A stretch of DNA of 64,000 nt. It comes from a virus. The DNA lies in the IMG/VR virus record IMGVR_UViG_3300046010_015054, positions 106,106 to 170,105 of that record; one strand, 5' to 3'. The translations under genes were made by a program, and so were the position numbers. Below are positions 2,833 through 10,760 of the stretch, piece by piece (within the stretch, counting starts at the first letter, position 1; every line of letters starts with the position of its first letter). The notes beneath the pieces are model-generated. The model was given only the letters and a program-made list of their open reading frames with translations. It did no database searches and had not been told where the DNA came from.

Positions 2833-5800
2833 TAGCCTTTTACGGGATATTCAACTATTAATTTCGGATCTACTTTTCTTTCTGCAAATACTACGTAATA
2901 AGCGTTTACTTCTCCACATTCACATGCTACCACGACTTGTTCAACTGACGCTGATAATACGTAGTGAGTACATGATTTTCCAATAGGTGTTAATTGTACT
3001 GATAGGCTATCATGGTATACTAAATCTTTCCAGTAATCAGGTAATGTAATTACTCCATCTCCTTCTACTTTACCTCTAATATACACACCAGTTTCTGGTC
3101 CCTCAAGCACTGAGTAGCGAAGTCTCCATCCTTCTTTTGAAGGGTGTGGTATATCAAAGTTTTTAACGTTACCATTGATTTCATTAAAGTTATTAATATT
3201 AGAAGTTCCGGCACCATCAATATTACCAGTACCATCCATAGTAATGTTTCTAACATTACTAACATCAGTATTGTTCATATCAATGCCACCTTGAACACTA
3301 ATATCTCCGTTAACTCCTAATGTTGTGCCAGTAAATGTTAAGTTAGCTTCACCATTAATTAGACCAGCGGTACCAGTTGCGGTTAATACGTAGTTGTTAG
3401 TATTGTTGTTTATAGTAGCAGCGCCTGACGTACCTGATGAACCTGATGAGCCACTAGAACCGCTAGTACCACTAGAACCGGATGAACCTGATGAACCGCT
3501 TGTACCTGAAGAGCCTGATGTACCACTAATGCCTATACCTGATGAACCTGAAGAACCTGATGTTCCTGAAGTGCCATTTACACCTGATAAACCTGAAGAA
3601 CCAGATGTTCCAGAAGAGCCGCTTGAACCAGATGAGCCTGAGCTACCACTTGAGCCACTTGTACCTGATGAACCTGAAGTTCCTGATGAACCTGAAGTTC
3701 CTGATGAACCTGATGAGCCTGAACTGCCAGAAGATCCTGAACTGCCTGAAGTACCAGAGGAGCCTGAAGAACCACTAGTTCCTGATGAGCCTGAGCTACC
3801 TGAAGAGCCACTTGAACCTGATGTACCAGAAGAGCCTGAACTACCACTTGTGCCTGATGAGCCTGAGCTACCTGAAGATCCAGAAGAGCCACTAGTACCT
3901 GATGAACCTGAACTTCCTGACGTGCCTGATGAACCTGATGAGCCTGATGAGCCTGAAGTACCAGATGAGCCACTTGAGCCAGATGTTCCTGAAGAACCTG
4001 AACTACCTGATGAACCTGATGAACCTGAAGTACCACTAGTTCCGTTTATACCTGATAAACCTGAAGAACCAGATGTTCCGCTTGAACCAGATGAGCCTGA
4101 GCTGCCACTTGTACCTGAAGAGCCTGAAGTTCCTGATGAACCACTAGTTCCTGAAGAGCCTGAACTACCTGAAGAACCAGAACTTCCACTAGTACCTGAT
4201 GTTCCGCTTGAACCTGAAGTACCTGATGAGCCTGAACTTCCACTTGAACCTGATGAACCTGAACTACCTGAAGTACCTGAAGTTCCTGAAGTACCACTAG
4301 AACCAGATGTTCCTGATGAGCCTGAAGAACCAGAGCTGCCTGAAGATCCTGAAGTACCAGACGAACCTGAGCTTCCGCTAGTTCCTGATGAACCACTAGA
4401 ACCTGAGCTGCCTGATGAGCCTGATGTTCCTGAAGAACCACTTGTACCTGAAGTACCGGATGAACCACTTGAACCAGATGAACCTGAACTACCTGAAGTT
4501 CCTGATGTACCGTTAATACCACTTAAACCTGATGAGCCACTTGTACCAGATGAACCTGAGCTACCTGATGAGCCTGAAGAGCCACTAGTACCTGAAGTAC
4601 CTGAACTGCCTGAAGTACCTGAACTACCGCTTGAACCTGATGAACCAGAGCTTCCGCTAGTTCCTGAGGTACCACTTGAACCTGATGTTCCTGATGAACC
4701 ACTTGAACCAGATGAACCTGAAGAGCCACTTGTACCTGAAGTACCAGATGAACCACTTGTTCCTGATGAGCCTGAAGAACCTGATGAACCAGAAGAACCA
4801 CTTGTACCTGAAGTACCTGATGAACCACTAGTACCAGAAGTACCTGATGAACCTGAAGAGCCACTTGAGCCACTTGAACCAGAAGTTCCTGAAGAACCTG
4901 AAGTACCTGAAGAACCTGAGCTACCACTTGTACCTGATGAGCCACTTGAACCTGAAGTTCCAGATGAGCCACTTGTTCCAGAAGTACCATTAATACCACT
5001 TAAACCTGATGATCCAGATGTACCTGAGGTACCAGATGAACCTGATGATCCTGATGTGCCTGATGTTCCGCTTGAACCTGAAGTGCCTGATGTTCCTGAT
5101 GAACCAGATGAACCAGAACTTCCACTAGTACCTGATGTACCGCTTGAGCCAGAAGTTCCTGATGAACCTGAGCTACCTGAAGATCCTGATGAGCCGCTAG
5201 TTCCTGAAGTTCCTGATGAACCGCTTGAACCTGATGTACCTGAAGAGCCACTTGAACCACTTGAACCGGAAGTACCACTTGTACCTGAAGTACCATTTAT
5301 ACCTGAAAGGCCTGATGAACCAGATGTTCCTGAAGAACCTGAAGTTCCGCTAGTTCCTGATGAACCTGAGCTGCCTGATGTTCCTGATGAACCTGAAGTA
5401 CCAGATGAGCCATCTGTACCACTAGTTCCTGATGAGCCACTAGAACCTGAACTACCACTTGAACCAGATGTTCCGCTTGAACCTGAAGTTCCGCTTGAAC
5501 CTGAAGAGCCACTTGAACCACTAGTTCCTGAAGTACCAGATGAACCACTTGTTCCTGATGAACCTGAACTACCTGAACTGCCTGATGTACCGCTAGTACC
5601 TGAAGTTCCGTTTATACCGCTTAAACCTGAAGAACCTGATGTTCCTGAAGAGCCAGATGTACCTGAAGTACCTGAACTGCCTGATGAGCCCGAGCTACCA
5701 CTTGTACCAGATGAACCATCTGTACCAGATGTACCACTTGAACCTGAAGAACCTGAAGTACCACTTGTACCACTTGTTCCTGAAGAACCTGAAGATCCTG

Positions 5801-8800: not shown

Positions 8801-10760
8801 ATCCGCTTGTTCCACTTGTACCAGATGAACCATCTGTACCAGAGGTACCAGAGGTACCAGAAGTGCCTGAAGAACCATCTGTTCCTGATGTTCCTGATGA
8901 ACCATCTGTACCTGAGGTACCGCTTGTGCCCGAAGTACCATTTATACCACTTAAACCTGAAGAACCTGAGGTACCTGAAGTACCACCTGTACCACTTGTA
9001 CCAGAAGTACCACCGGTACCTGAAGTGCCACTTGTTCCTGAAGTTCCGGATTCACCACTTGAGCCTGATGTTCCAGATGTACCATTTACACCTGATAATC
9101 CTGATGTGCCTGAGGTTCCTGAAGTACCTATACCTGAAGTTCCACTTGAACCACTTGTTCCAGAAGTGCCATCTATACCTGATGTACCTGAAGTACCTGC
9201 TTCTCCTGAAGTGCCACTTGTACCCGAAGTACCATTAATCCCAGAAGTTCCTGATGAACCATCTGTACCTGAGGTACCACTAGTACCTGATTCTCCTGAT
9301 GTGCCTGATGTTCCTGAAATTCCACTTGTACCTGAAGTACCAGATTCACCACTTGTTCCACTTGTACCAGATTCTCCAGAGGTACCTGAAGTACCAGACT
9401 CACCTGAAGTACCGGATGTACCTGAAATTCCTGATGTACCTGATGTACCCGAAGTACCTATACCAGAAGTGCCAGAAGTTCCTGATGAACCATCAGTACC
9501 TGAAGTGCCACTAGTACCTGATTCTCCTGATGTACCTGAAGTACCAGTTTCACCTGAAGTACCACTTGTGCCTGAAGTACCAGAAGATCCTGAGTCTCCT
9601 GAAGTGCCTCCTGTAATAGTTACTAATACTGCTGTACCTGATCCTGTTGATTCAACTTGTACACCACTACCAGTAAAGTAGAACGCACCGATATTGGTAT
9701 CAACGAGTGAGCCCGTATAATAAATTGTAGTACCAATAGTAACGTTAACTTCTCCTGGATTACTGCCAGTTTCTGCAACTACACCTGATCCTGTAAAGTT
9801 AATTAGTGTAGCGTTTGTTGTTAAGACAAAATTTTCGTCTGAAATTGTAATAGCAGAACCTGCTCCTGAAGTACCTGAGGTACCGCTAGTACCAGTTTCA
9901 CCTGAAGTACCACTTGTACCAGATGATCCTGAAGAGCCTATGCCTGAAGTACCTGAGGTACCACTTGTTCCTGAAGTTCCTTCACCTGATGTACCAGAAG
10001 TGCCACTTGTACCATTAATACCAGAAGTACCTGAAGTACCATCAGCACCCGAAGTACCACTTGTACCTGATGTGCCTACGCCTGAAGTGCCAGATGAACC
10101 ATCTGTACCTGAAGTACCACTTGTTCCTGATGTACCTACACCTGAAGTACCAGATGAACCATCTGTACCTGAAGTACCTGATGTGCCTGAAGAACCGATA
10201 CCTGAAGTACCGGAAGAACCATCTGTACCAGATGTTCCTGAAGTACCTGAAGAGCCTGTACCTGATGTACCTGAAGTACCATCTGTTCCAGATGTGCCGC
10301 TGGTACCTGATGTGCCTACACCTGAAGTACCTGAAGTGCCATCTGTACCTGAAGTACCTGATGTGCCTGAAGAACCGATACCTGAAGTACCACTTGTACC
10401 AGATGAACCATCTGTACCTGAAGTACCTGAAGAACCTATACCTGATGTACCTGAAGTACCACTTGTGCCTGAAGTTCCTGAAGAACCTGAAGAACCTGAA
10501 GAACCAGAACCACCACCAGTACCAGTAATTGTAATAGTAGCACCATTTGAACCAGACGCTTCAACAAAAACCCCACTACCTGTAAAGTTTAATGTTGCAA
10601 CATTTGATACAACTAATGAACTTGTGTAGTAAATATTAACTGCTCCACCTATACCGGAAGTACCTGAAGTACCTGAAGTGCCATCTGTGCCACTTCCTCC
10701 ACCGGTTGACTGAAAACTCCCAATTGATATTTGGTCTAAAAATCTAGCGTTACTGGCCAT
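2832..10760 (-). CDS. Giant Gly-Thr-Ser/Gly-Ser-Ser repeat fibre protein (2642 aa) with a C-terminal tail-fibre/chaperone-type domain
   Basis: About 2000 aa of G-X-Y (GTS, GSS, GTD). The C-terminus [40 protein letters not shown] resembles domains at the ends of phage fibres. Confidence 0.85.
3425..10510 (-). repeat. (GTS/GSS/GTD)n triplet array with periodic GLS-GIN-GTS markers
   Basis: 9-nt periodicity with diversified synonymous codons. Marker spacings are 144-162, 306-324 and 468-477 nt. Confidence 0.95.

Follow-up and report, generated by a model that had tools for sequence, protein, structure and literature searches.

What role could be played by a short hydrophobic motif which recurs along a giant collagen-like phage fibre at distances that increase stepwise, as one, two and then three multiples of a single unit? 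The question arises from the stretch of DNA analyzed here, referred to as the window, which consists of 64,000 nucleotides (nt) and forms the final 64 kb of the 170,105-bp IMG/VR virus record IMGVR_UViG_3300046010_015054 (positions 106,106 to 170,105), a record rated complete. T4-type genes are found within the window with Pfam profiles (Gp23 capsid, Gp20 portal, baseplate J). Among cultured phages, Flavobacterium phage vB_FspM_immuto is the closest (capsid identity 54%). The fibre gene, P0001, is situated in this T4-like structural region with gp23 and gp20, at window positions 2832–10760 on the minus strand, and its open reading frame translates to 2,642 amino acids (aa). A stretch of approximately 2,060 residues consists of Gly-X-Y sequence, including a run of 621 consecutive triplets without a break (aa 548–2410). 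The N-terminal part matches Pfam Collagen (PF01391) with an E-value of 7e-19. The gene product also matches the PHROG tail-fibre profiles phrog_5073 (E = 3e-11) and phrog_6320 (E = 9e-8), and these matches owe mostly to Gly-X-Y composition. This region codes for the stalk of a giant phage fibre of the collagen type. If triple-helical, the stalk would measure about 0.6 micrometre, taking the textbook value of 0.286 nm for the rise of each residue. Pieces of the gene recur across many lake-water metagenomes.

The fibre displays 22 copies of the sequence GSS-GLS-G(I/V)N-GTS-GTS, here termed nodes, with the G[IV]NG segment that follows GLS found between aa 554 and 2390. The plus-strand low coordinates of the nodes, from the N-terminal to the C-terminal end of the protein, are 9081, 8937, 8775, 8622, 8460, 8298, 8136, 7974, 7821, 7668 and 7515 for the first half and 7200, 6876, 6552, 6237, 5922, 5607, 5292, 4986, 4509, 4041 and 3573 for the second. 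The first ten spacings are 16, 18, 17, 18, 18, 18, 18, 17, 17 and 17 triplets (144–162 nt, the 1x class); these are followed by eight of 35, 36, 36, 35, 35, 35, 35 and 34 triplets (306–324 nt, 2x), and by three of 53, 52 and 52 triplets (468–477 nt, 3x). The classes are strictly ascending from N to C. All blocks lie on the minus strand. The 1x block, with 11 motifs at 16–18 triplets, occupies 7518–9119, and the 2x block, with eight units of 34–36 triplets whose acidic residues recur at lag 18, occupies 4989–7517. The 3x block (3576–4988) consists of three GSS-rich units of 52–53 triplets, without acidic residues and with an 8-triplet sub-period inside. The best step is 17.5 triplets, with a root-mean-square residual of 0.036 step versus 0.23 for uniform-random spacings (p ~0.003). 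Thus the lattice step is approximately 17.5 triplets, or 52 residues, or about 15 nm. The Spearman rho of spacing versus order is 0.81. A global lattice phase test of the window array gave no discrimination (R = 0.97 at 17.54 triplets, versus 0.96 for the permutation null).

The composition of the stalk changes in parallel with the spacing. The collagen region is built only of G, S, T, D, E, N, I, L and V plus three Ala, with no aromatic residue and no Q. Residues 385–2448 contain 0 P, 0 K and 0 R, and the known collagen stabilisers (Pro/Hyp and Lys-Glu/Asp pairs) are therefore missing from this part. Hydrophobic residues of the 621-triplet run are confined to the nodes, save for one GIS triplet. 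The sequence ahead of the run is more densely set with hydrophobic sites, at intervals of 20 aa and then of 11–56 aa, and it includes two more GING sites (aa 247 and 507), neither of them with GLS. Glu is last seen at aa 1094 and Asp at aa 1782 (plus-strand positions 5415–5417), and as the acidic triplets fade the GSS fraction per unit climbs from 0.12 to 0.69 towards the C-terminus. A preliminary description of this DNA, made by eye, had listed 22 marker positions, a 1x/2x/3x monotonic spacing and an acidic fade towards a GSS-rich distal part. All 22 positions are recovered in the translation, each at the claimed value minus 1; the spacing counts of 10, 8 and 3 and the N-to-C order are the same, and the composition gradient is real, the last Asp having been placed at about 5410.

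Homologous arrays were gathered from IMG/VR through a search with the tip domain and a scan for a degenerate form of the motif. Each lineage carries its own uniform motif, e.g. GVS-GVN-GSS, GIS-GID-GTS or GIS-GVN-GTS, and all variants fit G-phi-S-G-phi-(N/D)-G-T/S, where phi is a hydrophobic residue. Eleven arrays, including that of the window, are significantly quantised on a step of 15.9–17.6 triplets, and spacing widens C-terminally in 10 of these (the window and nine of the ten others; rho 0.68–0.95); the lineages are related by descent, so the arrays are not independent trials. In the array designated L098 (IMGVR_UViG_3300007540_000068) the spacings from N to C are 18, 35, 52 (four times), about 70 (seven times), 88 and 97 triplets. 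L003 shows pairs of 4+12, then about 17 (29 times) and then 34–35 (eight times); L002 shows 14–17, then mixed 1x and 2x, and then 31–33; L032 shows about 19 (three times), 33–38 (17 times) and about 52. Homologue spacing, a comparison which the preliminary description had proposed, is thus not random. L002, L003 and L086 display interleaved class transitions such as 1,2,1,2, and these fit graded occupancy of a lattice better than simple block copying. The internal Thr/Ser sub-period is 8 triplets in some lineages and 10 in others and the number of units varies widely, with the absolute lattice the same. Wherever homologues possess acidic residues, these are skewed to the N-terminal half, and hydrophobic X residues show the same skew in 22 of 29 dereplicated Ser/Thr-rich phage collagens. 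Since related phages have the stepped pattern too, it has the look of a selected design rather than of a remnant of recent copying.

A separate observation concerns four further Ser/Thr-rich phage collagens, L164, L161, L163 and L166, where GIS, GIN, GID or GVN is found at each third triplet over hundreds of residues. The hydrophobic triplets of L164 and L166 thin out C-terminally, a denser version of the stepped theme.

Codon usage within the arrays bears on how the pattern is kept. In the window the motif is conserved in protein in 22 of 22 copies, but its codons vary: Leu appears as TTA, CTT or TTG, and Ser codons are drawn from both the TCN and the AGY class. Identical residues of different units use the same codon in 45.4% of cases versus 43.3% expected from codon usage, and no DNA repeat of at least 80% identity over 90 nt is found within any of five giant genes of the fibre family. 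Recent duplication as the cause of the pattern is ruled out by this chance-level codon identity together with the lack of such repeats. The motif is invariant although synonymous sites have come close to saturation between units, and a full explanation by recent neutral duplications, which the preliminary description had allowed for, does not hold. With sites near saturation a unit phylogeny at synonymous sites is not feasible. In L098, two 210-residue units, which start at aa 1467 and 1890 of the fibre open reading frame, are 100% identical in protein and 71.7% identical in DNA; 96 of 210 codons are shared, with 81 expected by chance. Protein-identical units with scrambled codons point to strong purifying selection on the exact Thr/Ser pattern. 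A family of aquatic phages, none of them cultured, shares the stepped architecture, and purifying selection maintains it.

The units also retain signs of their origin. Acidic residues in the 2x units of the window recur at lag 18 (0.28, about 4.7 standard errors), and the 2x units of L002 show lags of 15–17. The lag-18 repeat suggests that a 2x unit consists of two 1x units minus the middle motif. Units within one class are alike in Thr/Ser and Asp pattern, in keeping with tandem copying of entire units. In L098 the 3x and 4x classes have taken on a 10-triplet period, and a lag-17/18 signal is absent from them; they are still on the lattice. We infer that the arrays grew by copying of whole inter-node units and that the higher classes arose via internal node loss, with units fused. 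Stepwise duplication with marker loss, as put forward in the preliminary description, is therefore retained in part: loss appears to be the origin of the 2x class, as the lag of 18 indicates, and the upkeep of the pattern is not explained by it.

The reading preferred here, to which a probability of roughly 0.4 is given, is that the nodes may act as cohesive clamps on a presumed triple helix free of proline, lysine and arginine, with clamp density stepped down towards the tip. As observed, every lattice site is occupied at first, then every second and then every third in the direction of the C-terminal tip. At each node, three Leu and three Ile would make up a hydrophobic belt, complemented by an interchain Asn/Asp(Y)-Gly-Thr(X') contact. 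Minor Asp(Y)-Gly-Ser(X') pairs might support the clamps and would fade in parallel. With node and acidic density falling, the stalk would have its strongest clamping, and has its highest acidity, at a distance from the tip. The least clamping would then be found beside the C-terminal domain, which is the usual folding start in phage fibres and collagens, and the tip would be held by the C-terminal trimer. The outcome would be a fibre with graded stability or stiffness along its length. As judged from the sequence, nodes of registration, clamping and binding are all plausible. A wider proposal, which is tentative and put at somewhat less than even odds, is that the 1x–5x occupancy of the ~15 nm lattice may constitute a selected gradient of cohesion or stiffness, and that the Thr/Ser pattern may be a second code, e.g. 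for glycosylation; for neither is a counterpart described in any collagen.

The Y-Gly-X' pairs are nearly fixed. At the motif, N-G-T is present in 21 of 21 cases in the window and D-G-T in 43 of 44 in L003, and outside the motif Asp is followed by Ser as D-G-S in 43 of 46 cases in the window (Ser background 45%), 31 of 31 in L032 and 12 of 12 in L107; these counts use repeat units related by descent, which is the first of several points that weigh against a clamp function. Triple-helix formation by Gly-Thr/Ser-Ser without proline is itself a hypothesis, and hydrophobic X residues are not known stabilisers in host-guest peptides. Not every array conforms. L016 is quantised but non-monotonic, with alternating 3x and 4x spacings, and L106, L037 and L047 are irregular and not quantised. 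In L112 a leader (aa 137–677, about 180 triplets) precedes the array, and its single GID triplets lie 39, 20, 20 and 57 triplets apart. A leader with sparse GID ahead of the stepped series, as in L098 and L112, means that node density is not maximal at the very N-terminus. Finally, shared ancestry combined with tandem copying that by itself keeps order and spacing makes conservation across arrays weaker evidence of selection than the counts suggest.

The best-surviving alternative, which we regard as doubtful, is that the nodes are lateral adhesion or docking belts, to which other fibres (including the short fibre described below) or an accessory protein would bind, so that fibres would be bundled near the virion and frayed distally. 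Exposed hydrophobic X residues are typical collagen ligand sites, and the motifs hold nearly the sole hydrophobic residues among approximately 1,900 hydrophilic residues. The phage also carries a short collagen-like fibre of 449 aa (46094–47443, minus strand) with six copies of the motif family, which lie 46–50 aa apart, equal to the 1x step. Three of these copies have the exact 15-residue variant, while GTS-GLS-GVN accounts for two and GLS-GNN for one. No gene of the 170-kb genome other than those of the giant and short fibres bears the motif: the degenerate motif pattern gives 22 matches in the giant gene, 5 in the short fibre and none in any other gene, and the reversed-pattern control gives 0 matches. 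The comparison of marker spacing with 46094–47443 suggested in the preliminary description thus uncovers the same motif family at the 1x step. The DNA of the two genes is 67–69% identical, with no similarity above the compositional baseline, and the shared motif and step occur without DNA-level conversion, a point in favour of this alternative. However, bundling of identical fibres in register requires no quantised lattice, and there is no candidate partner protein. The giant and short gene pair was absent from five other records searched.

That the pattern is a historical by-product is unlikely, and this explanation is less likely than clamping or adhesion, as is modification. It holds that a 1x array lost motifs, that the fused units were amplified in tandem and that the order of the blocks has no function. 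The ghost 1x period within the 2x units agrees with such a history, as do the Thr/Ser and Asp patterns common to the units of one class, and blocks stay contiguous under tandem copying. Rapid change in length may also occur: L072 and L086, from two metagenomes and of one phage type, show 0 substitutions over 10,650 aligned bases and differ in indels alone, three in the array, totalling 19 and 10 triplets. However, a functionless history does not readily account for a motif, a spacing (within 1 triplet) and a Thr/Ser pattern that are kept despite near-saturated synonymous sites, or for one lattice constant across lineages of differing internal pattern. Ascending classes are found in ten arrays including the window, one of these a six-class series, some transitions are interleaved, and acidic, GSS and hydrophobic residues show parallel gradients.

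A role as modification sites is quite improbable. The preliminary description had named modification sites among its suggestions; in the form considered here, phage enzymes would N-glycosylate or hydroxylate the Asn of N-G-T/S, in a pattern set by the spacing. Each Asn-type motif does make an N-X-S/T sequon, but the sequon arises automatically from the G-T/S-S background, and Asp replaces Asn in 39 of 49 L003 motifs and in the mixed arrays L029, L065 and L037. Interchange of Asn and Asp at the motif, within and between arrays, disfavours N-glycosylation. An Asp/Asn hydroxylase, to be listed beside this interchange, would accept either residue.

Assembly has to be considered as well, as every array comes from metagenome assembly. 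The three indels without a mismatch between L072 and L086 may stem from fast-changing array length or from faulty assembly, so a part of the off-lattice values may be erroneous or polymorphic. Among public contigs none spans the array of the window; public reads and contigs gave only short exact pieces and many chimeric joints from related phages. Against these two points, the DNA is codon-scrambled and thus resolvable by short reads, exact pieces of 170–560 nt are present in at least three lake-water runs, and the same series is given by L098, L078, L112 and L077 from separate metagenomes. Repeat collapse, moreover, cannot delete a motif and yet keep an on-lattice length, and an assembly artefact of a low-complexity gene is accordingly very improbable. 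In the lake-water runs X1, X2 and X8 the summed contig depth over window positions 3600–7600 is 10–300 times that of the unique gene ends. This excess over the Gly-Thr/Ser-Ser array indicates that many related lake collagen genes share 31-mers with it.

Some geometric ideas were set aside. Bundle turns at the nodes, which the preliminary description had mentioned, are unlikely since there is no Gly-X-Y break in 621 triplets, and packing as a spool, coil or hairpin with turns at the nodes was set aside for the same reason. The radii that such packing implies are far under the bending range of collagen. An anti-slip 'vernier' code was dropped by reasoning: after a shift of one unit, equally spaced blocks leave many nodes coincident.

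The clamp reading can be set beside known collagens. Textbook collagen stability comes from proline/hydroxyproline and charge pairs; the window fibre has neither, yet it holds 621 triplets in register. The D-periodicity of fibrillar collagen is a 234-residue repeat of hydrophobic and charged clusters. The likeness lies in the long-range periodic interaction residues; the window period is 52 residues and its occupancy changes along the molecule. BclA of the Bacillus exosporium has a Thr-rich stalk which is probably stabilised by O-glycans and whose length sets the filament length; it consists of 20–70 triplets of the GPT type, ends in a C1q-like head and has no node lattice. The window fibre is also a Thr-rich stalk, without the GPT triplets and the C1q-like head. 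In the bouquets of C1q and the collectins the stalks cohere N-terminally and splay to C-terminal heads with one kink between, whereas the window fibre would lose cohesion stepwise, and its bundling is hypothetical.

Among phages, collagen-like tail and side fibres (Smith et al., 1998, 'Bacteriophage collagen'; P-SSM2 orf028, PMC1079782; EPclA of E. coli O157 prophages, PMC3368898) share with the window fibre the Gly-X-Y stalk, the non-collagen N- and C-terminal domains, the setting among structural genes and the exchangeable tips. Relative to these the window stalk is 10–50 times longer, is free of proline, has no basic residue and displays the stepped lattice. Malcor et al. (2025, PMC11923368) proposed that KGE/KGD salt bridges serve as clamps on long helices during C-to-N zipper folding. 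Similar to that proposal are the sparse Y-Gly-X' contacts between chains, the pairs in the window being N/D-G-T and D-G-S. The window fibre has no Lys and hence no salt bridges, so that a belt and a hydrogen-bonded pair would take their place, and graded spacing is absent from the KGE/KGD model. A full-text search of the literature on phage collagen fibres and collagen clamps found no description of stepped node spacing. If the nodes do hold the helix or tie fibres together, they would be a new and very simple stabilising module, and the fibre would be a natural graded one-dimensional material. The pattern predicts features at 15, 30 and 45 nm in microscopy. It also flags a large family of uncultured aquatic phages with fibres of half a micrometre to a micrometre, and the identical protein repeats with scrambled codons indicate that 'low-complexity' Ser/Thr tracts can face very strong selection.

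The remaining parts of the giant gene, all on the minus strand, flank the stepped blocks. The N-terminal non-collagen part (aa 1–79, 10524–10760) is presumed to be virion-proximal by analogy with phage fibres. It is followed by a proximal collagen segment (aa 80–301, 9858–10523) of 6-triplet Gly-X-Y runs with a G-(I/V)-G break each 20 residues, for which Tandem Repeats Finder gives periods of 60 and 180 nt. A beta-rich non-collagen insert, recognized by sequence and hydrophobic clusters, lies at aa 302–384 (9609–9857). The transitional collagen (aa 385–547, 9120–9608) is rich in GES and GTD and shows single hydrophobic triplets at 11–56-aa intervals. On the distal side, a collagen tail (aa 2396–2448, 3417–3575) contains a single GIG-IS break and leads into the conserved stalk/tip junction and the C-terminal tip domain of about 110 aa (2832–3416). 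A 2,095-aa open frame antisense to the fibre gene (3394–9681, plus strand) is the expected mirror artefact of Gly-X-Y sequence and is no gene.

The junction matches many loci that bear different tips, and the C-terminal modules after the stalk in homologues include S74 chaperone-like tips. The window tip belongs to phrog_17490. Fibres of cyanophages and flavophages bear its domain as well, and so do giant proteins that are not collagens. A protein database search with the tip region gave mostly such giant proteins and no added arrays. An AlphaFold2 model of the tip has a pLDDT (predicted local distance difference test score) of about 80 for residues 117–193 only, and the best Foldseek matches, to the tail-fibre tips of AP22 gp53 and the R-pyocin fibre, are weak (E = 0.03–0.1). 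A PDB sequence search with the tip gave no match, and Pfam on the C-terminal 222 aa showed no domain besides a below-cut-off Collagen match, and no C1q/TNF-like domain. L002 and L003 share 97–100% DNA identity over the tip and downstream, and approximately 68% from the exact collagen boundary; in L002 (8541–10180) the identity to L003 drops again within the next collagen gene. The stalks of the two bear different motif variants. The sharp boundary indicates that stalk and tip are swapped as modules, and these phages have exchanged the tip module recently.

Two other collagen-like genes are present in the window. The neighbouring gene at 2–2809 (minus strand) has a different chemistry, with GPI/GPQ triplets, KGDNQA breaks 111, 177 and 177 residues apart and GPT triplets each 33 or 45 residues, and these periods are unlike the 52-residue lattice of the giant fibre. 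The gene at 16131–16946 (minus strand) encodes a 271-aa collagen-like protein with GIN and GIS triplets, a tail-fibre-type N-terminus and a PHROG tail-fibre match.

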